Positions 820 to 22,223 of a DNA stretch of 64,000 nt are shown here, one piece after another (position 1 is the stretch's first letter; each line of letters begins with the position of its first letter). The position numbers and the translations under genes were made by a program. This DNA is from Escherichia coli (GTDB lineage: Bacteria > Pseudomonadota > Gammaproteobacteria > Enterobacterales > Enterobacteriaceae). The stretch is from NCBI RefSeq assembly GCF_041886205.1, contig NZ_CP169029.1. One strand, 5' to 3'. The notes under the pieces are model-generated. The model was given only the letters and a program-made list of their open reading frames with translations, did not search any database and was not told the origin of the DNA.

Positions 820-1674
820 TTAACCTGCAATAGCCATTCCTACTGTCATGTGCAGGCCATAAAAGAGCACACGCCCGATCATCTCACCGCCAAGTATGAG
901 GATTAGCCCCAGAATAAGTCCGGCAACGTGAGGTTCACGGCGACGAATGAGCGGGCAAAGCCAGCATCCAAGACCTGCGCATAACAATACCACACGCCAG
1001 ACCTGTAAGGAGGCGTAATCTGGTACCAGTGCGCTGGCTTGTTGCACGGATGAGTGAATAGACGCCAGAGACAAACCTTGCAGCACAATCACCCCGGCAC
1101 AAGCGATCAGCGCCAGAACGCTAATGATGGCAAATGGTGTGGTATTAAATGTAACGCGAGCTGCCCGCAGAATTGCGGCAGCAAGTATTGGACCGCTCAA
1201 CAATACCGTCAGGAAGAAAGCCAGCGTAGTGTAACCGTTATGCCAGGTTGGCACGGTGTCGATTTGATACACGCAGGTCATCATCCAGACGAAAATGACG
1301 CCGAGCGCCATGCTGAAAAGTAACCAGAGTTTCCCCAACGCTTGCGGCATTTTACCGATGACTGCCACCAGCCACCATAATCCGCCAACGGCAAAAAATA
1401 TGGAACCGGCAGCAATCTCGTTACTCAGACCAGAAGCTCCGATTCGATTCAGCGAGTTAAACGCCCGCAGTGGCGATCCCAGGTGCATGACAGAGGCAAT
1501 AAACCCGACGCCCATCAACAGCCAGAGGAAAAACATGCCACGGACAATACGCTGACGGTCTGCGTCATTTTTGGCGGCGAACCAGCCAATTCCGCTAACA
1601 ATCAGCGCGCCTACTACGCATTGACCCAATACGGTAAAGATAACCAGTGGCCACTCATGCCATCCATTTCCCAT
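820..1674 (-). CDS. ynfH: DMSO-reductase-type membrane anchor subunit (DmsC family)
   Basis: Multi-TM hydrophobic protein; track ORF runs to 1914 but ATG at 1674 (MGNGWHEWPLV..., 284 aa) sits 2 nt after the ynfG stop; upstream extension would overlap ynfG. Confidence 0.8.
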   Translation of the reverse strand: MGNGWHEWPLVIFTVLGQCVVGALIVSGIGWFAAKNDADRQRIVRGMFFLWLLMGVGFIASVMHLGSPLRAFNSLNRIGASGLSNEIAAGSIFFAVGGLWWLVAVIGKMPQALGKLWLLFSMALGVIFVWMMTCVYQIDTVPTWHNGYTTLAFFLTVLLSGPILAAAILRAARVTFNTTPFAIISVLALIACAGVIVLQGLSLASIHSSVQQASALVPDYASLQVWRVVLLCAGLGCWLCPLIRRREPHVAGLILGLILILGGEMIGRVLFYGLHMTVGMAIAG

Positions 1675-1675
1675 T

Positions 1676-2293
1676 TTACACTTCCTCCGGATTAGCCAGA
1701 TAACCAGTGGTATCGCCGGTCGGGCGGCTGTTGGCGTTAGGTTTGATAACGATATTGGGTTTTGTGAAATGCGCGCGCGGCAGTGGCGCGACGGCAGCAA
1801 GAGTGCCGTGCTTCTGGCGCAGCTCTTCAATTGGACCGAACTCAAGTGCACGCAGCGGGCAGGATTCGACACATATGGGTTGTTTCCCCTCGGCGACGCG
1901 CGAATAACAACCATCGCACTTCGTCATGTGCCCTTTTTCAGCATTGTACTGTGGCGCGCCGTACGGACAAGCCATGTGGCAGTAGCGGCAGCCGATACAA
2001 ACATCTTCATCAACCACCACAAAGCCATCTTCACGCTTATGCATTGCGCCGCTGGGGCAGACTTTTGTACATGCGGGGTCATCGCAATGGTTACAGGAGA
2101 TGGAGAGATAATAAGCGAACACGTTCTGGTGCCAGACGCCATTATCTTCCTGCCAGTCGCCGCCAGCGTATTCATAAATACGGCGGAAACTGACTTCCGG
2201 GCCAAGATCTTTAAAATCTTTGCACGCCAGTTCGCAGGTTTTACAGCCAGTACAGCGGCTGGAATCGATAAAAAATCCATATTGTGTGGTCAT
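1676..2293 (-). CDS. ynfG: 4Fe-4S ferredoxin-type electron-transfer subunit (DmsB family)
   Basis: 205 aa with four Cys-rich Fe-S cluster motifs (CTGCKTCELAC, CNHCDDPAC, CIGCRYCHMAC, CDGC...C). Confidence 0.9.
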   Translation of the reverse strand: MTTQYGFFIDSSRCTGCKTCELACKDFKDLGPEVSFRRIYEYAGGDWQEDNGVWHQNVFAYYLSISCNHCDDPACTKVCPSGAMHKREDGFVVVDEDVCIGCRYCHMACPYGAPQYNAEKGHMTKCDGCYSRVAEGKQPICVESCPLRALEFGPIEELRQKHGTLAAVAPLPRAHFTKPNIVIKPNANSRPTGDTTGYLANPEEV

Positions 2294-14140: not shown

Positions 14141-15989
14141 CGATTTCTTTATCTCTTACATCAGACGAGCGCCGGTTGCAGAATACCAGTCACAACCGGC
14201 GACAGTTGAACATTAAGAATCAGCCTGACTCGGGATCAGTTTTTGCCAGATAGCTGAAACGTATTTTGCCTGGTAACGGGCGTCATCAAGTGCATTATGG
14301 CGCTCACCTTCGAATGGAATAGCCGTTCTGGCATCGAAGTCTATGGCTTTCCCCAGCTCAACGATTGTGCGTACATCGCGATCGTTGTAGTAACGCCACG
14401 GGCAGGGGATCCCCTGCCGTTCGTATGAACGGCGCAAAATCGTGTTGTCGAAGTTGGCTCCATTTCCCCAGACATGAACAAAAAATTCACCGGAGTTTTC
14501 GTCGATAAATTCCCGCAATTGTAACAGTGCATCATCTAACGGGATTTCATCGGTCATAATGGCAGATTGCGCTTCGCGTGATTGTTTAAGCCACCATTTA
14601 ATGGTGTCCCGATCAATGACTCCGCCAGCAGTTTCCAGATCGATAGTCTTACTAAATTCCGGTCCCATATCTCCGGTTTGCGGATCGAAAAATATTGCAC
14701 CTATTGAGATAATCGGGGCATCGGGATTTTTTCCCATGGTTTCAAGGTCGATCATCAGATGAATCCCCGCTCTGCTGGTGGATGTGAGATTATGATGACC
14801 GTTTGCCTTAATTAAGGGATCTGACGCCTCGCCAGTTTCACTATCGCTGGCATGATGCTGATTGCCGCCAGTGTTCTCCTTGTGCTGATGCGCAGTGCCT
14901 TCTATTTCCTCCGGATCATTTTCCTGAACTTCAGGCTGATTCTCTCCATCGAATATTTCCTGGTATGTTGCGTCACCCATCACCGCACCACAATCAGGGC
15001 AGTTGCCGCCACCGCTCTGACCGCAGGCGGTGCAGATCTTTTCCGGTTCCTGTTGCACTACTGGTTCAGGTTGTTTCGTTTCTGGCTCGTTTTGTTGCAT
15101 ATTTGGGCTGTTTTGTTCCGCTTTCTGGTCGTTCTGTTCCGTTTCTTGCTGGTTCTGGTTCACAGAATCGCGGGTCTGGATCCCCTTAATCCATTTCGGA
15201 TCATTCGGGTCGCTAATCCCTTCAACAAATTCACCACGTGATACTGCAAGCAGTTCATCGGCGTCAGGCTGGCTGATATTGGCTGCCTGCATAATTTTGT
15301 TTACTTCGTCAGCGGTAACTTTTACTGACCCTGGTTGTGCGGTCGTGTCAGATGCACCAGTATTTTGTTGTGAACCTGAGTATGTACCGTTTTTGCGGGC
15401 GAAATATTCTTCTTTCGTGATTTCAGTAGCCCCAGCAGACAGCGCCTTATCCAGACCAGAAAGTTTATTTGCGCGACCGTATTTTTCGCCATCCTTGTCG
15501 GTGAAGAGGAAGTAGAACGGCCCCTCACGTTCTACAGATGGTTCGACTTCCACTTTGCATTCGGTTTTTTCGTTGTCTGGAATTGCCGTTTCCACTGCAT
15601 CAGTTTCTGGTACTGGCGACGAGAGAGTATCAGTTGCGCTCTGATTTGTTCCTTCATCTTCAAACACGCCCTTTGTAGTCAGGTATTCAGTAATGTATTT
15701 GTTCAGTGCCACAGGGTCTTTGTGAATGTCGATCGGACGTTCACGGACAAGGCCAAAAATAGTCTGGCGGTCGTAGCGAAGGGCATCAGGCTGTTTGCGC
15801 ATTGATGCCGAGATACGCTTCCAGTCTTCGCGGTCGTTGTCGATAACTTCATTTTTTGCCCAGCGATGGATGCTGCCGTCAATGTTTCCGGCATCCACAT
15901 CACCAGGCCAGAGAGCGTAGGCCAGTTCGTCATCCTGAACCGCCCCGGGAATCCTGGAGACTAAACTTCCTGAGAAAGAGGTAAACAGG

Positions 15990-16316
15990 ATGACTAAAAA
16001 TACTCGTTTTTCCCCCGAAGTCCGTCAACGGGCAGTCCGTATGGTTCTGGAAAGTCAGAGCGAATATGACTCACAATGGGCGACAATTTGTTCCATTGCT
16101 CCAAAGATTGGCTGTACGCCGGAGACTCTGCGTGTCTGGGTTCGCCAGCATGAGCGGGATACCGGGGGCGGTGATGGAGGGCTCACCACCGCTGAACGTC
16201 AGCGTCTGAAAGAGCTGGAACGTGAAAATCGTGAACTGCGCCGCAGTAACGATATCCTTCGCCAGGCTTCCGCTTATTTTGCGAAGGCGGAGTTCGACCG
16301 CCTCTGGAAAAAATGA
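15990..16316 (+). CDS. IS3-family transposase OrfA (HTH)
   Basis: 108 aa [21 protein letters not shown]...; leucine-zipper-like C-terminus. Confidence 0.85.
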
Positions 16317-17203
16317 TGCCACTGCTGGATAAGCTGCGTGAGCAGTACGGGGTCGGACCGCTATGCAGCGAACTGCATATTGCCCCGTCAACGTATTACC
16401 ACTGTCAGCAACAGCGACATCATCCGGATAAACGCAGTGCCCGTGCGCAGCGCGATGACTGGCTGAAGAAAGAGATACAGCGCGTATACGATGAAAATCA
16501 CAAGGTATACGGTGTGCGTAAAGTCTGGCGTCAGTTGTTACGGGAAGGTATCAGAGTGGCCAGATGCACTGTGGCACGTCTCATGGCGGTTATGGGACTT
16601 GCCGGTGTTCTCCGGGGTAAAAAGGTCCGTACGACCATCAGCCGGAAAGCCGTTGCCGCAGGCGACCGCGTAAACCGTCAGTTCGTGGCAGAACGACCTG
16701 ACCAGCTGTGGGTGGCTGATTTTACTTACGTCAGCACATGGCGGGGCTTCGTCTATGTGGCGTTCATCATTGATGTGTTTGCCGGATACATCGTGGGGTG
16801 GCGGGTCTCATCGTCCATGGAAACGACATTCGTGCTGGATGCACTGGAGCAGGCGTTATGGGCCCGTCGACCGTCCGGCACGGTCCATCACAGTGATAAA
16901 GGTTCTCAGTATGTATCGCTGGCCTACACACAGCGGCTTAAGGAAGCCGGATTACTGGCATCAACAGGAAGTACAGGCGACTCGTATGACAACGCGATGG
17001 CGGAGAGCATCAATGGTCTTTACAAAGCGGAGGTAATACACCGTAAGAGCTGGAAAAACCGTGCAGAAGTGGAACTGGCCACACTCACGTGGGTGGACTG
17101 GTATAACAATCGACGATTGCTGGAAAGGCTGGGCCATACTCCTCCGGCAGAAGCAGAAAAAGCTTATTATGCTTCCATCGGAAACGATGATCTGGCAGCC
17201 TGA
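16313..17203 (+). CDS. IS3-family transposase OrfB (DDE integrase core)
   Basis: 296 aa with rve-type DDE domain; overlaps orfA in -1 frame. Confidence 0.85.
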
Positions 17204-18017
17204 GTTCACAGATAAAACACTCTCCAGGAAACCCGGGGCGGTTCATCCAGTGTTTTCCATGTCTGCTTGTATTCGCGATGAATGGCAGCAATGACCGGGT
17301 TGATTTTTCCTGTTGAATTTTCAGTGTGCTGTTGATTGGCTCTGGCACGGGCGAGATCAACAACAGACGTGTATTTTCCGGCTTCCTTGCGTTCACCTTC
17401 GCGACGTTTTTTCCAGATGCGCATCTCTGCCTGAATTTCGGGCCATTTGGCACCAGGCTTACATTTATGCTTAACCCACCCGATGGCATGCAGCTTAAGC
17501 TCCGGATACATAGCGTTAACTTCTGGCATTTTCATCAACGCTTCAACGATATGGCCGTCGAATGTTGCCATGTCTTCCTGCAACAATTCCTGTGCGCTAA
17601 TCACCATATCAACAGTGATGTTTTCACATGTGTCGAACTTAACCATGACAGCGTTCTGTACTTCAGGGGCTAGGTTGTCAAAAGTGACGTTCATCGGATC
17701 GGATTCAGTCTCGACCGGGACAAAGGAAGCAGACGCCTCATCCCAGCGGTTTTCCTGCATATATTCAGCATCCCAGGAATCGAGGGCAGGGCGGGGTATA
17801 CCGGGTTTATCCTCGCAAACAAGAAATTTATAAGCGCAGTCCTGAGCAGCCGGATAATGTTCCAGGAATTGCCAGTGAAATTTTGCGCGGGCGCGACGTT
17901 CATCACCGGCTTCAATGGCAGTGGCTACAGTGAGACGAACTTCGCCGTGCGCTTTCGTGTTGTGTGCCTGCTTTTAACCACGTCAGGCGAGGTGGTATCC
18001 TTAAAATCACCACAGTT

Positions 18018-18593
18018 TTAAGGATTCATTAAGCAATGTCGCAACCACCAATAAATCCGCTTAAGAACATGAAAATTGATTACTGGTATAAAGCGCTTAC
18101 AGTTGTTGGCGCTGCGTTGTTTGTCTTTAATGGAACGTCTTTTTTTGACAGATATCCCGTTGTTCCATTGGATTTTTTGTCCTCCGGCATCTTTTTTATT
18201 GGTTTGGGGGAGTGGATTAATCACCCTCTCAAAGTGAGATTTATTGGTCCTGGAGTTTGGACTCGTGGATATAATCGTTCTTAGTGCGCACTCGGTATCA
18301 TCTTCGACATACTTGGTTGTTTCCTGATTGTTACAGGAGTCGTCAAGTTCTTCTGATGTAAAACCGCAAATGGGGCACGTAACGGGAATTTTGAAAAGCG
18401 TTTCTCCGGGTTCCAGAACAAAATTTTCTGCGGTCTGATTTTGCTTCTCATATTTGTGCTCCGCGTCATTGTGAGAGCACATTCTTATTCTGAGTGCCTG
18501 TTTAAACTCACTGAAGCTGAGAGCTTCTTCGCCTTCGGCAAGACCTTCGAAGTATTCTTCGTAAGCCTTTTCCATGATTGTGTCGAAATCCAT
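18018..18593 (-). CDS. hypothetical phage early protein; C-terminal half doubtful
   Basis: Start at MDFDTIMEKAYEEYF...; first ~110 aa look protein-like, the rest is K/R-rich low complexity and overlaps a plausible plus-strand ORF. Confidence 0.35.
   Translation of the reverse strand: MDFDTIMEKAYEEYFEGLAEGEEALSFSEFKQALRIRMCSHNDAEHKYEKQNQTAENFVLEPGETLFKIPVTCPICGFTSEELDDSCNNQETTKYVEDDTECALRTIISTSPNSRTNKSHFERVINPLPQTNKKDAGGQKIQWNNGISVKKRRSIKDKQRSANNCKRFIPVINFHVLKRIYWWLRHCLMNP
18036..18284 (+). CDS. hypothetical small membrane protein (two predicted TM helices)
   Basis: 82 aa with hydrophobic segments ALTVVGAALFVF and SGIFFIGLGEWI; RBS AAGGA upstream; lies antisense within the 18018-18593 ORF. 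Confidence 0.3.
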   Translation: MSQPPINPLKNMKIDYWYKALTVVGAALFVFNGTSFFDRYPVVPLDFLSSGIFFIGLGEWINHPLKVRFIGPGVWTRGYNRS

Positions 18594-18594
18594 A

Positions 18595-18831
18595 TCACTC
18601 ACCTGAGTTTCTTTCCAGCCAGCGACGGGCACCATTTTCGGTTTTAAACGTTTTGCTTTTGGTATACGTCATCGCGGTGAACGTACCGTCCTGGTTGGGG
18701 AACACGCCACATACCGGAGATTCGCTGTTGCCAAGATCGATAGTATCCATGCTGACCTCATTTCCCCTTAACGCCGGGGTAGCGGAACAAAAACCTGCTG
18801 CATAGTTATTAAAGTTGAACCCTGCCGTCAT
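18595..18831 (-). CDS. hypothetical phage early protein
   Basis: 78 aa ORF; stop overlaps next start (TGAtATG arrangement), suggesting translational coupling. Confidence 0.4.
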   Translation of the reverse strand: MTAGFNFNNYAAGFCSATPALRGNEVSMDTIDLGNSESPVCGVFPNQDGTFTAMTYTKSKTFKTENGARRWLERNSGE

Positions 18832-19047
18832 GTTCTTACGCCTCGGGCTGGCTACTTAACCCCTGACCACTGCCTGGTAACTCGAAGTATTGCCCTGCAT
18901 TCTGTGGGGCGGGGTGGGTGGCAGGCATATAATGTACTTTGCGTTCATTGTTGTAAAGTACTTTTAGTACATTTTGTGTGTAAAAAAATGAGATGGGATA
19001 AAGTGAAGCACAAACCCGGAGGAAGGCGCTACCGGATTTATGCTGGT

Positions 19048-19467
19048 TTAAGAGGCTTTTTGTTTTTTCTTTCGTGCTAACTCTTCGTAAATTGCATTGT
19101 ACTTCTGTTTTTTCTCTTCAAGAGTTTTTAAAAGTTCATCTGTCTCACTGTCAGGGAGCTCGTCCAGAAGGTCAATGATGATTTTTTGTCTTGGATTTAA
19201 CTCCTGATAGAAACGTACCTGTCCACTTTCTTCTGTATCCTCTCCCAAAAGATAGGTTGGTGTTGTTCCTATTAGTGTTGCTAATTCCCTTAATTTCTCC
19301 CGGCGAGGAATTGTTTCGCCATTAAACCATTTGCTAACCGCTTTTGGTGTTAATTTCATTCGACGGGCAATTTCTGCCTGCCTTCCATGTTGTTCATAAC
19401 CAGCGTTTTCACAGGCTAGCGCAAGCCTACTGGCGAACTCTTTACGCGCTTTATCTTCATGAACCAT
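19048..19467 (-). CDS. prophage repressor, XRE-family HTH (RacR/DicA-like)
   Basis: 139 aa; HTH QAEIARRMKLTPKAVSKWFNGETIP; divergent from a Cro-like gene. Confidence 0.7.
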   Translation of the reverse strand: MVHEDKARKEFASRLALACENAGYEQHGRQAEIARRMKLTPKAVSKWFNGETIPRREKLRELATLIGTTPTYLLGEDTEESGQVRFYQELNPRQKIIIDLLDELPDSETDELLKTLEEKKQKYNAIYEELARKKKQKAS

Positions 19468-19546
19468 AAGTTCAATGATATTCGCTCTTGAATGTACTGT
19501 CAGTTCTGTTATAGCATGTACTCAAAGTTCACACTGTGAGGGTGAT
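19468..19546. promoter_or_regulatory. divergent immunity promoter/operator region
   Basis: 79-bp intergenic region between repressor and Cro-like gene; direct repeats TGTACT at 19493-19498 and 19517-19522. Confidence 0.4.
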
Positions 19547-19801
19547 ATGAACCAGAAAACACTTGAAGATGTAATCAAAACTGTTCGCGTTGCTGTTGTG
19601 GCCGACGTTTGTGGTGTCAGCCAAAGAGCAATCTATAAATGGATGGATAACGGAAAATTGCCTCGCACAGAATATACCGGCGAAACAAATTACGCTGAAA
19701 AAATCGCTCTTGCATCAAACGGATTATTTTCTGCCGATGCAATTTTAACTATTGGCAGGAATAAAACTACTACGAAAAAGCTGATGGGAGTTGATTCATG
19801 A
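19547..19801 (+). CDS. Cro-like / YdaS-like small DNA-binding protein
   Basis: 84 aa from MNQKTLEDVIKT...; RBS GAGGG; position opposite the repressor. Confidence 0.55.
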   Translation: MNQKTLEDVIKTVRVAVVADVCGVSQRAIYKWMDNGKLPRTEYTGETNYAEKIALASNGLFSADAILTIGRNKTTTKKLMGVDS

Positions 19802-20223
19802 AAATCAAGCATGAACACATCCGCATGGCGATGAATGCCTGGGCGCATCCGGACGGCGAAAAAGTACCGGCTGCGAAAATTACCAAAGCGTATTTCGAGC
19901 TGGGAATGACGTTCCCGGAACTGTATGACGACAGCCATCCGGAAGCCCTGGCTCGCAATACTCAGAAAATTTTCCGCTGGGTGGAGAAAGACACCCCTGA
20001 TGCGGTTAAAAAAATTCAGGCGTTGTTACCAGCTATCGAAAAAGCAATGCCACCTCTGCTGGTGGCCCGAATGCGCAGTCATAGCTCAGCCTATTTTCGG
20101 GAACTAGTGGAGACGCGGGAACGACTGGTGAGAGACGCTGATGATTTTGTCGCAGTGGCGATCGCTGGTTTCAACCAGATGAATCGTGGTGGCCCTGCAG
20201 GAAATATTGTGGTTGTGCATTGA
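19798..20223 (+). CDS. YdaT-like protein
   Basis: 141 aa starting MKIKHEHI..., third gene of a RacR-YdaS-YdaT-type module; overlaps upstream stop. Confidence 0.5.
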   Translation: MKIKHEHIRMAMNAWAHPDGEKVPAAKITKAYFELGMTFPELYDDSHPEALARNTQKIFRWVEKDTPDAVKKIQALLPAIEKAMPPLLVARMRSHSSAYFRELVETRERLVRDADDFVAVAIAGFNQMNRGGPAGNIVVVH

Positions 20224-20288
20224 CTCGCAATATTCATACCGGATCACTTCCGGCAATTTGTGAGTAAAAAGATTCGGTATCAAAAGAG

Positions 20289-21365
20289 GTGAGTATGGCT
20301 AACGCCTGGCTCAGATTATGGCATGACATGCCAAATGACCCTAAGTGGCGAACAATTGCCAGGGTGTCAGGGCAGCCAATTGCAACAGTGATGGCAGTGT
20401 ATATCCACCTCTTGGTGAGCGCGTCACGAAATGTCACGCGAGGTCACATTGATGTCACGACAGAAGATTTGGCAAGTGCGCTCGACGTGACAGAAGAGGT
20501 AATTGATTCAATTTTGCAGACGATGCAGGGGCGGGTACTTGATGGTGATTTAATCACTGGATGGGAAAAACGCCAGGTGCTTAAAGAGGACAACGGCAAT
20601 ATTTCGCAAACCGCAAAATCTCCTGCAGAGCGCAAGAGGGCGCAGCGAGAGAGGGAAAGAAAGCGGGAACAAAATGGCGATTGTCACGGCGCGTCACGAA
20701 ATGTCACGCACATGTCACGACGAGTCACGACAGATAAAGATACAGATAAAGATACAGATCAAGAAGATCAAAACACTATGGTCCATGGCGTAAAAAACGC
20801 CACGAACCAGGCAGGGGATGTTCAGACCGTCAATCTTGGTCAGCCAGCAGGCACGACACCGGAAGCCGATTCAGCGTATGCGCTGAAAGCCGATTCGGGC
20901 GCTGTGCAGCAGGTGATGACCGCAAGGCCGGAGCAATCACACCAACTGCAGCAGCCCGAAGCCGATTCCGCCATTCAGCGGGAAGCCGATCGGGTAGTCC
21001 CGGAAAACACCGGGCAGTCTGTGGGACGAGTGGATTATCCGGATGTGTTCGAACAGGTCTGGCGGGAGTACCCGTTGCGTGCCGGAGCAAACCCGAAGAA
21101 ATCCGCTTTCAGTGCCTGGAAGGCCAGATTACGCGAGGGGGTGCCACCAGAGGCCATGCTGGATGGCGTGAGGCGTTACGCAAGATACTTGGCGGCTACC
21201 GGGAAAACGGGAACGGAATTTGTTCAGCGAGCGACGACGTTTTTTGGACCGGACCGGAATTTTGAGAACTCCTGGTTGCTCCCGGTAAGCGGCACGAACA
21301 ACCAGCGTTGTGTGAATCATATTTCTGAACCGGATAACGAAATTCCGCCGGGCTTCAGGGGGTAA
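20289..21365 (+). CDS. phage replication initiator / replisome organiser, O-like
   Basis: 358 aa; N-terminal WLRLWHDMPNDPKW motif; the coding sequence contains iterons; GTG start with RBS. Confidence 0.6.
   Translation: MSMANAWLRLWHDMPNDPKWRTIARVSGQPIATVMAVYIHLLVSASRNVTRGHIDVTTEDLASALDVTEEVIDSILQTMQGRVLDGDLITGWEKRQVLKEDNGNISQTAKSPAERKRAQRERERKREQNGDCHGASRNVTHMSRRVTTDKDTDKDTDQEDQNTMVHGVKNATNQAGDVQTVNLGQPAGTTPEADSAYALKADSGAVQQVMTARPEQSHQLQQPEADSAIQREADRVVPENTGQSVGRVDYPDVFEQVWREYPLRAGANPKKSAFSAWKARLREGVPPEAMLDGVRRYARYLAATGKTGTEFVQRATTFFGPDRNFENSWLLPVSGTNNQRCVNHISEPDNEIPPGFRG
20423..20765 (+). repeat. putative replication origin: nine GTCAC(G/A) iterons in two clusters plus an AT-rich tandem repeat
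   Basis: Iterons at 20423, 20433, 20443, 20454 and 20683, 20693, 20703, 20714, 20724 (10-11 bp spacing); then GATACAGATAAA x2.5. Confidence 0.5.
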
Positions 21366-21405
21366 GTGTTAATTTCTGGTCATGAGGTAATTTTCAGGAG
21401 GGCTT

Positions 21406-21828
21406 GTGGCAAAAGTTTTTACACAAGAAGAGCGGGAAAAAATTAAAGGGCAGGTTGTTGAACTCGTACGCCAGAGTGGGCGCGAGACGTTAAGACAACT
21501 GGAAACTAAAACTGGGGCAACAAAATATATGATGAACGTTCTGGCCAGAGAGCTGGTTGCCAGTGGCGATGTATACAACTCTGGTTACGGGTTATTCCCG
21601 TCTGAACAGGCGCGTAAGGACTGGCAAAATGCCCGTAAAAAGCTCTCAAGGGCAAAGCTGAAGAAACCATCTGCGGTTGATCCGGACCTTATCTGGTCAT
21701 TACCTGATGGAGAAATACGTCGTTACGACAGGCGTCATAATATGATTTGTACTGAGTGTCGTAAAAGCGAAGTTATGCAGCGCATATTGTCGTTTTATCA
21801 GGGGGATGTTCGGTATTTATTGAAGTGA
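21406..21828 (+). CDS. hypothetical phage protein
   Basis: 140 aa; GTG start 6 nt after AGGAGG; contains C-x2-C. Confidence 0.45.
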   Translation: MAKVFTQEEREKIKGQVVELVRQSGRETLRQLETKTGATKYMMNVLARELVASGDVYNSGYGLFPSEQARKDWQNARKKLSRAKLKKPSAVDPDLIWSLPDGEIRRYDRRHNMICTECRKSEVMQRILSFYQGDVRYLLK

Positions 21829-22223
21829 CGAGATTAAAGTGCATTAGTTCAGATGCAAATTGACATTTTGTGGCACAGGGTAGAGCTAGCGTGGTTGTCC
21901 GCTTTGTGCCAACAGCGGACATTATGGAAGGTCAGAGTTAAAGATTAAAATGGGATGCTGTGTGTTTTCTCCAGGTTTTGCTCTATACCTTTCGGGATAC
22001 TCCACCGACAGAATACGAAAATCAACATTATCAACGGCTCGAAGTGTCTAGATTATCCATGGCAATTCATGGGAAATCCCATCCAACGGCTTATGCTTCA
22101 TGTTGCTTTTTGAGATCGCTTCTAGCATAGCTCCACTCAATAATGTTGTCGGGTCGTTGCTGATCGAAAAGGATACGGGATTCAATACCATTACCTAAAA
22201 AGCTGGTACCGGAACTCGGGCTG

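Follow-up and report, generated by a model that had tools for sequence, protein, structure and literature searches.

A conserved membrane-protein gene probably nested antisense within a translated early-operon reading frame of lambdoid phages

In this study, we analyzed two overlapping open reading frames (ORFs) of opposite polarity in a 64,000-nt stretch of Escherichia coli DNA (assembly GCF_041886205.1, contig NZ_CP169029.1), which is hereafter called the window. The plus ORF is a copy of a conserved gene for a predicted membrane protein, and the minus ORF belongs to the early operon of a Qin-like prophage. Our preferred reading, to which we give a probability of about 60%, is that a membrane-protein "moron" of the lysogen type lies antisense inside an early-operon ORF and that both strands are read. 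The initial annotation had described a minus ORF that turns K/R-rich where it covers a plus ORF with two membrane helices and a ribosome-binding site. These positions and features were recovered: the plus ORF has two Kyte-Doolittle windows above 1.4 (residues 20–37 and 41–58) and a Shine-Dalgarno-like AAGGA, and K+R in the minus ORF rises from 8% of residues 1–86 to 22% of residues 111–191, in the part that mirrors the plus ORF. The two ORFs are in exact codon register (18036 − 18018 = 18), with plus position 3 facing minus position 1. The coincidence of the two features is more than chance because the K/R/N-rich minus tail mirrors the hydrophobic plus codons one by one.

The comparative evidence establishes with high confidence that the plus ORF derives from a genuine, conserved protein-coding gene. 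Among 5.8 billion proteins searched, 58 were related to its product. The near-identical ones from E. coli have the normal length of 106 aa, and the distant ones (102–113 aa; 40–67% identity for those of 102–111 aa) come from Yersinia enterocolitica, Herminiimonas aquatilis, Reinekea marinisedimentorum, and many metagenomes. A further 63 and 15 loci, including those of Pseudomonas, Marinobacter, Burkholderia, Martelella, and Desulfobacteraceae, were obtained by scanning viral contigs and species-representative genomes, respectively, and gp33 of Burkholderia phage Bcep176 is also a family member. In a profile search of 1.84 billion cluster representatives, the family comprised 574 clusters at E ≤ 1e-3 and 304 at E ≤ 1e-10, nearly all of 100–115 aa. 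G58, E59, W60, N62, H63, and G87 are invariant in an alignment of 34 sequences, and W17, Y18, G56, I61, P64, R81, and G94 are nearly so. The two family motifs, DYWYK ahead of helix 1 and GLGEWINHP after helix 2, are both present in the window copy (IDYWYKA and GLGEWINHPL). Nucleotide differences by plus codon position are 38/22/55 between the window and L005 (loci are cited by their L numbers) and 41/24/59 between the window and the Yersinia locus L009. The order position 2 < position 1 < position 3 holds in all plus-gene pairs compared, which indicates purifying selection on the plus frame.

The AlphaFold2 model built on the family alignment has a mean predicted local distance difference test score (pLDDT) of 89 and a predicted template modeling score (pTM) of 0.75, with helices at residues 17–33, 42–62, and 85–105 and a hairpin at 66–78. 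Together with the hydropathy profile, this model predicts a membrane protein. The proposal of the initial annotation that the plus ORF encodes a small membrane protein thus gains a conserved family and a coding-type substitution pattern in the plus frame. The protein had no match in Pfam, PHROGs, NCBIfam, or PADLOC, and its fold had no match in PDB or BFVD at E ≤ 0.001, the best being connexins at E of approximately 0.5.

Existing annotations take the opposite view of the pair. The minus ORF is annotated in phages HannyBb (CDS0038) and mEp390 (gp39), and PHROGs lists the minus ORF family (phrog_35040) and not the plus family. On their account, the minus ORF would be the only real gene and the plus ORF would be open by chance, and it is true that the plus ORF of the window is just 82 aa long and is left unannotated by the Prokaryotic Genome Annotation Pipeline (PGAP). 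This account can hardly be right, and the data already contradict it: the plus family also occurs where the minus frame has 5–17 stops, its motifs are invariant, substitutions are most frequent at plus third positions (the first positions of minus codons), and the AlphaFold pLDDT is 89 for the plus product and 45 for the minus product. The minus ORF matches phrog_35040 over residues 1–191 (E = 3e-139), and the minus ORFs of other lineages match it only via the part mirroring the plus gene. phrog_35040 is therefore in large part an antisense image of the plus family.

Judged from its alignments, the minus ORF is a three-part chimera. Its first 34 codons are homologous to ydfB; phrog_2061 matches residues 1–34 only, and similarity does not extend over the whole length of YdfB (42 aa), since homology ends at 18493. 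Residues 35–86 lie on the cassette side of this joint and end in K-I-P-V-T-C-P-I-C-G-F-T (IPxxCPICGF), a conserved motif directly upstream of the overlap in the minus sense. Across the 12 motif codons in five lineages, differences summed over pairs are 31/28/69 at minus positions 1/2/3. Between the window and L065 they are 0/1/9, that is, ten nucleotide changes and one amino-acid change. The N-terminal segment differs in group B (L070, L072, L073, L087, and the cultured phage mEp390), where it reads ..LE..PGSV......VTLIGW and gives 113/75/158 over 24 codons. These patterns indicate that the minus strand is protein-coding just outside the overlap. Further toward the N-terminus the lineages are unrelated: the motif is preceded by YdfB in the window, by a start at the ydfA start codon in L015 and L061, by short leaders in L005 and L009, and by an unrelated 88-aa segment in L065. 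A zinc ribbon in the minus protein was considered and rejected; conservation is limited to a single CPxCG knuckle and does not extend to a second Cys/His pair, and the cysteines are missing in group B.

The third part, the tail that is antisense to the whole plus gene, is rich in K, R, N, and Q and behaves differently. The 26 nucleotide differences between the window and L015 cause 10 amino-acid changes in the plus protein but 20 in the minus protein, and pairwise lineage comparisons detected no amino-acid constraint on the tail. For the minus ORF as a whole, AlphaFold gave a pLDDT of 45, with residues 40–175 below 50 and no fold predicted for the tail. The amino-acid sequence of the tail thus appears not to be conserved and to be free to drift. 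The initial annotation had proposed comparing the minus protein with its homologs in length. The ORF is indeed full-length in relatives (P0001, 205 aa, 1798 member sequences), but the tail is not conserved as a protein. In L015 and L061, the minus ORF (271–280 aa) runs from the ydfA start codon across the plus gene and the promoter-like element described below and continues in frame into ydfC (MQKREPVII...), making one fused ORF; a PaaA2/ParE toxin-antitoxin pair adjoins it in L015.

Constraint on the tail is suggested by its openness. In this register, each TTA, CTA, or TCA codon of the plus gene produces a stop in the minus frame. These codons account for 0 of 140 Leu/Ser codons in eight lineages (window/L015, L005, L009, L069, L070, L072, and L073), and for 16–29% of Leu/Ser codons in the flanking ORFs, the local background. 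Other A-ending codons are used normally in the plus gene (0.21 vs 0.23), and L087 and mEp390 also lack the three codons. The empirical chance that a mirror frame of 107 codons is free of stops is 5.2% as estimated from window ORFs and 7.7% from the loci. Among 20 moderate-GC lineages, nine are stop-free against 0.59 expected (Poisson 1.5e-8), the seven lineages with near-saturated synonymous sites give a combined p of 3e-7, and all nine stop-free lineages have the minus-strand N-terminal motif (association p = 1e-4); the lineages are related, so these statistics overstate independence and the p-values are upper bounds on significance. Motif and open tail occur together in 9 of 10 lineages. Homologs without the motif have 1–17 mirror-stop codons, at or above expectation except in L085, and homologs that are co-directional with their neighbors have 5–17. 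The open state is not simply inherited, because synonymous divergence is 0.5–0.7.

Both frames thus show signs of selection, the plus frame in its substitutions and the minus frame in the coding pattern upstream and the stop avoidance within the overlap. The long opposite-strand ORF looks as if it is kept open by selection and is not a simple annotation artifact; we consider it probable that it is translated across the plus gene and that its openness is selected. Two statements of the initial annotation do not survive this comparison. One was that one of the two ORFs is probably not real, against which stand both the 0/1/9 pattern just before the overlap and a minus frame that lacks stops across the plus gene much more frequently than expected by chance. 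The other was that the minus gene had lost its original stop: the read-through form is the usual one in divergent phages, and only L065 ends right after the motif.

The plus gene with its surroundings probably forms a portable cassette that was placed backwards in a phage early operon. Its content would be a promoter-like element, the 106-codon gene, and approximately 45 nt past the stop. K-12 Qin has ydfA and the first 34 ydfB codons in common with the window at 96% identity; the homology then breaks at window position 18493 and resumes only in the exonuclease gene, and the cassette is missing from K-12 Qin. The same slot is without the cassette in K-12 Qin and holds ECs_2282 instead in O157:H7, and the cassette gene occurs at three different operon slots in other phages.

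Upstream of the gene, five diverged lineages all have the pattern TGCCTG..TTTA(A/T)CCAC..CAGGC..GTGGTATCCT, and a GTGGTATCCT-like box lies 33–37 nt ahead of the start codon in six lineages. The extended −10 candidate within this pattern, TGnTATCCT, has its end 34–37 nt from the start codon. The 37-bp core of this element (17965–18001) is 97–100% identical in more than 2000 E. coli genomes and is also present in phages of Escherichia, Salmonella, Klebsiella, and Cronobacter, many of them lambdoid. It stands at the same distance ahead of two unrelated plus-strand cargo genes, the present one and ECs_2282 of O157:H7, and could serve as a portable promoter or mark the edge of a module. The initial annotation had allowed for a promoter of the plus ORF inside an operon of opposite polarity; a conserved promoter-like element at a fixed distance upstream is what we found, and its function as a promoter is putative. 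GCCTG and CAGGC within the element can also pair, which would give a hairpin whose loop is conserved. Downstream, a weak terminator-like hairpin candidate begins approximately 100 nt past the plus stop, and its end coincides with the mosaic joint to K-12 Qin. A consensus scan did not call this hairpin. A structured RNA in the 3' region of the plus gene was rejected, as folding was no better than that of shuffled sequences (z = −0.53).

In O157:H7, the 37-bp core lies 33 nt upstream of another plus-strand gene in the same slot (L094, 1501–1537), whose product is an ECs_2282-family zinc-binding protein of 66 aa. The box is present in 75 of 76 ECs_2282-type loci. As a separate observation, the ECs_2282-family gene of L094 (1571–1771, plus strand) is also fully covered by an in-register antisense ORF of 118 aa (1550–1906, minus strand), which corresponds to phrog_21318. 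The 76 ECs_2282 loci have no mirror stops, a result of little weight as all but one are at least 92% identical.

In phages, the plus gene always lies beside immunity genes. In group A (the E. coli type, L005–L008, and Yersinia L009–L011), it is located between the repressor and the early-left genes, on the strand opposite to the latter. In group B, it lies between the cro-like and cII-like genes on the opposite strand, which is that of the S24 repressor; in mEp390, gp39 is flanked by the cro-like gp38 and the cII-like gp40. In L069, it follows an S24 repressor and two signal-peptide genes, all on the same strand, in a rexAB-like position. Non-phage homologs are co-directional with their neighbors, for which Pfam was uninformative (DUF5677, DUF6236, and a weak TPR match). 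Such a context in phages would be expected if the gene is expressed in the lysogen and early transcription silences it at induction.

We propose the following scheme. In the lysogen, with the early operon repressed, the plus gene would be transcribed from an extended −10 promoter of its own, and its product would be a membrane protein of the lysogen type whose most likely role is in superinfection exclusion or abortive infection. At induction, leftward early transcription antisense through the plus gene would shut it off. The early-operon ORF, here YdfB codons 1–34 plus the IPxxCPICGF motif, would then have to be translated across the whole complementary stretch. There may be three reasons for this: a sequence-tolerant hydrophilic tail might be needed, ribosomes might, speculatively, have to cover the stretch that can pair with lysogenic plus mRNA, or an untranslated gap might cause Rho polarity on downstream genes. 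The ribosome-cover option would agree with the extent of the minus ORF, which in most stop-free lineages starts upstream of the 3' end of the plus gene and stops 0–48 nt past its start codon. Rho polarity agrees with group B, in which cro and cII closely flank the ORF and the gap to the next gene is 16–36 nt or is replaced by an 8-nt overlap.

Besides the relatedness of the lineages, several observations weigh against this reading or parts of it. L065 has the motif but its minus frame stops two codons into the overlap, and no genes on the minus strand follow. L068 lies between minus genes and yet has 11 mirror stops. The near-identical E. coli copies L047 with its duplicate, L051, and L060, which are too similar to count as separate lineages in the stop-avoidance test, have one mirror stop each with the plus gene intact, and frameshifted minus variants occur. 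Codon identity at conserved residues is not clearly higher in embedded pairs (0.26–0.51) than in non-embedded pairs (0.19–0.48). The consensus (sigma-70) scan did not call the promoter-like element, and the assignment of the TGgTATCCT box as a promoter is made at the level of consensus. Rho polarity fits badly in group A, where about 280–310 nt are untranslated anyway, and in L069, where no minus gene follows. No homology or fold match to a known exclusion or defense protein was found in Pfam, PHROGs, NCBIfam, PADLOC, PDB, or BFVD. The group A gaps and the stand-alone L069 ORF weaken Rho polarity as the sole explanation.

Some of these points agree with an alternative in which only the plus gene and a short minus gene ending near IPxxCPICGF are functional. 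The 105-aa tail would then be an untranslated or irrelevant run-on, open by chance or through codon bias and annotated because gene callers prefer the longer ORF. The minus gene of L065 does end right after CPICGFTSE, and mirror stops beside an intact plus gene are found in the E. coli copies mentioned above. The in-register antisense frame is also the poorest in stops, the other two antisense frames having 1–7 and 5–20, the tail is neither conserved in sequence nor predicted to fold, and in high-GC lineages openness is meaningless (probability of no stop, P(0), 0.1–0.57). We nevertheless regard this alternative as unlikely. It would have to accommodate the absence of stop-complement codons at all 140 Leu/Ser positions in eight lineages of moderate GC content with nearly saturated synonymous sites (p3 = 0.5–0.7), nine stop-free lineages at a base rate of 5–8% per lineage, and the use of TTA, CTA, and TCA at or above the local rate in homologs that are not embedded.

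A second alternative accepts the openness and gives it another meaning. The minus ORF might be a functional partner of the membrane protein, such as a regulator, antidote, or co-factor, for which the N-terminal hairpin or zinc knuckle and the hydrophilic tail are both needed and which travels with the plus gene as an overlapping unit. The joint occurrence of motif and open tail, the coding pattern in the minus N-terminal parts, and an architecture kept in three operon contexts speak for such a pair. So does L069, where a stand-alone minus ORF (159 aa, ATG start, CPRCG motif) is flanked on either side by plus-strand genes and P(0) is 0.001. This option fits L069 and the motif association and conflicts with the fast-evolving, unfolded tail, which changes approximately twice as fast as the plus protein and is predicted to be disordered. 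Moreover, the parts N-terminal of the motif are unrelated (YdfB, the YdfA start, and others), no second conserved Cys/His pair completes a zinc site, and non-phage homologs have no partner. We therefore consider a true protein pair possible but rather unlikely. More doubtful still is the idea of a sense/antisense double-coding unit of approximately 320 nt with a functional tail that acts as a lysogenic/lytic switch and is kept across diverged temperate phages. The tail might in that case bind or neutralize the membrane protein, or the ribosomes translating it might shield the early transcript from pairing with lysogenic mRNA.

Turning to the plus protein itself, its position suggests a lysogen membrane protein with a role in exclusion or abortive infection, an assignment that we offer tentatively, at slightly less than even odds. 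The rexA-rexB genes of lambda and sieB of lambda and P22 are lysogen-expressed exclusion genes located beside the repressor. Similar to these, the present gene encodes a small inner-membrane protein next to cI/cro, and in L069 it lies downstream of the repressor on the same strand. Unlike these, it is mostly opposite to the early operon, and no sequence, profile, or fold similarity to them was found. Compared with RexB, SieA/SieB, and Imm-type proteins in general, it is likewise a small membrane protein gene beside immunity genes without homology in sequence or fold.

The plus protein could instead be a membrane toxin restrained by the antisense early transcript, host-killing in the manner of a type I toxin-antitoxin system and not protective. 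The protein is small and hydrophobic, and its mRNA is fully complementary to an opposite-strand transcript, as in those systems. The operon is rich in toxic genes (dicB, dicF, and the lysis protein gene ydfD), nonsense alleles occur in approximately 10% of copies, and ParE/RelE modules lie near the plus gene in some loci. Type I toxins, however, are shorter than 60 aa and have a single helix. The present protein, at 106 aa, is approximately twice the usual size, with three helices and a conserved loop motif, and the opposite strand carries an operon ORF and not a small RNA, the Rfam search of positions 15000–22000 having matched only an element of an insertion sequence (IS). In addition, 41 of 51 prophage copies are intact, the L069 copy lies on the repressor strand among signal-peptide genes as in lysogenic conversion, and neither PADLOC nor Pfam gave a toxin match. 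A toxin is less likely than a role in exclusion or abortive infection, and we think it very unlikely.

The features of the region are listed in Table 1. Its gene order indicates a dicB-type early-left operon in a decaying, Qin-like lambdoid prophage of E. coli, and positions 17700–19000 are 99.9% identical to strain B7A. In K-12, the dicBF operon has the order ydfA, ydfB, ydfC, a long untranslated region with dicF, dicB, and ydfD (PMC5069750). In the window, ydfA ends one base ahead of the minus-ORF start codon. The prophage is regarded as decaying because of a 927-bp deletion and an IS3-family element in the exonuclease gene. The deleted 927 bp, present in B7A (L001, 3235–4161), comprise the 5' end of the exonuclease gene, ydfD (lysis protein), dicB, and dicF, which is a small RNA (sRNA) gene. 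The toxic genes of the operon thus appear to be lost in the window, and the operon downstream of the gene pair gutted. DicF was not found by Rfam in window positions 15000–22000, where the sole match was the ALIL pseudoknot of the IS3-family element, and an sRNA was on these grounds rejected as an explanation of the region. B7A likewise has an IS3-family transposase abutting a truncated exonuclease gene.

Table 1. Positions of the overlapping ORFs, their candidate signals, and neighboring features in the window
Feature	Position	Strand	Remark
Minus ORF as listed	18018..18635	minus	205 aa
Minus ORF from the YdfB start MDFDT	18018..18593	minus	191 aa; start at 18593
YdfB-homologous 5' part, codons 1–34	18493..18593	minus	within stretch 96% identical to K-12 Qin
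Conserved motif K-I-P-V-T-C-P-I-C-G-F-T (IPxxCPICGF)	18357..18392	minus	directly upstream (minus sense) of overlap
Minus tail, residues 87–191	18018..18356	minus	105 aa; in register antisense to whole plus gene
Plus ORF, truncated allele	18036..18284	plus	ATG start; 82 codons and premature TAG
Premature stop TAG	18282..18284	plus	codon 83
Remainder of plus frame	18285..18356	plus	23 sense codons and TGA; helix 3 with invariant Gly87
Shine-Dalgarno-like AAGGA	18020..18024	plus	11 nt ahead of plus ATG
Conserved promoter-like element GCCTGCTTTTAACCACGTCAGGCGAGGTGGTATCCTT	17965..18001	plus	putative promoter function
Extended −10 candidate TGgTATCCT	17993–18001	plus	hexamer 17996–18001; 34 nt ahead of ATG
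Terminator-like hairpin UGUGCUCCGCG..UGUGAGAGCACA, then UUCUUAUUCU	18455..18491	plus	U-rich; weak candidate
ydfA (DUF1391)	18595..18750	minus	first gene of dicB-type early-left operon
cI-like helix-turn-helix (HTH) repressor	19048–19467	minus	
cro-like gene, then YdaT-family gene	from 19475	plus	rightward
Deletion junction versus B7A	17926..17933		two alignments sharing 8 bp
IS3-family element	16271–17203		in exonuclease (ydfE-like) gene
ALIL frameshift pseudoknot of IS3-family element	16271–16387		
Transposase ORF of IS3-family element	16313–17203		

The plus gene of the window is itself a truncated allele, a point absent from the initial annotation. Of 51 E. coli-type copies, 41 have TCG (Ser) at codon 83, five have TAG, and four have CCG; the TAG copies are those of the window, B7A, and three viral contigs. 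In the minus frame, the change is only missense (CGA Arg to CTA Leu). The third hydrophobic helix (residues 82–106) lies beyond the TAG, and its codons are still in frame at 18285–18353, followed by TGA at 18354–18356. As it stands, the window copy falls short of the family length (approximately 100–115 aa) and lacks helix 3 with Gly87 and the G..FD..G pattern. It is a family member by descent and probably a pseudogene. Another natural knockout is found in E. coli O103 ML775 (L004, 2820–4130), in which IS1203, an IS3-like element, is inserted in the plus gene after codon 73. A further variable site is codon 46 (18171–18173), which is GGT in 42 near-identical E. coli copies, GCT in five, GTT in three, and GAT in one, the window. 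Its second position takes all four bases and gives Gly, Ala, Val, or Asp at the start of helix 2, so that this codon may be hypervariable or diversifying.

Several known arrangements resemble the present one in part. Morons have been defined as independently expressed genes inserted into phage operons (as quoted in PMC2629481). The cassette resembles them in its presence or absence at one slot, its own promoter-like element, a possible terminator, its location beside the immunity region, and the other cargo behind the same element in O157:H7. Unlike morons, which lie between genes, it is placed antisense inside an operon ORF, which continues through it in register; its expression in the prophage is putative. 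The O157:H7 slot has the same 37-bp element, orientation, and position and also has its cargo under an in-register antisense ORF (phrog_21318), but the protein there is unrelated, soluble, and 66 aa long, with two CxxC pairs. K-12 YdfB (42 aa, b1572) agrees with the minus ORF in the first 34 codons, the position after ydfA, and the overlapping stop/start arrangement. It ends eight codons later, whereas the window frame continues for 157 more codons into the foreign module.

Antisense overlapping genes have been reported in E. coli O157:H7, namely ano (PMC5960689), three further cases (PMC9927249), and those of a survey (bioRxiv 10.1101/2020.11.18.388249). As in those cases, two coding frames on opposite strands are found in E. 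coli and its mobile elements. The evidence for the O157:H7 cases is RNA-seq and ribosome profiling of single strains, and most of them concern young, short, embedded ORFs. The evidence here is comparative, being stop avoidance across diverged phages, and the embedded gene is old and conserved. Long bacterial antisense overlaps are disputed, and the evidence for them is usually expression in a single strain; the argument presented here is comparative and falsifiable, in that the plus gene avoids three frame-closing codons only where an opposite-strand ORF with a conserved N-terminal motif enters. If confirmed, the pair would offer a natural system, in viable phages such as HannyBb and mEp390, for studying why a frame stays open while its sequence drifts, the candidate reasons being Rho protection, protection from antisense pairing, and a sequence-tolerant tail.

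The module is present in approximately 800 RefSeq E. coli genomes. Neither ORF is annotated by PGAP in the RefSeq records that we examined, where a 102-nt stub carries the label "ydfB, incomplete". A family of 574 clusters thus goes unannotated in these E. coli records while PHROGs and phage annotations hold its antisense image, and the same applies to the ECs_2282 slot. Mining of prophage cargo for defense or conversion genes would miss a real candidate. Literature searches on the locus (ydfB/ydfC/dicF/antisense, ECs2282, and moron/antisense/Rho) yielded background only and nothing on the gene pair. In mEp390 (L175), the GenBank note on the minus-strand gp39 reads "similar to gp33 of Bcep176". 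Bcep176 gp33 lies on the strand of the plus family, and the similarity cited for mEp390 gp39 does not fit the annotated strand.

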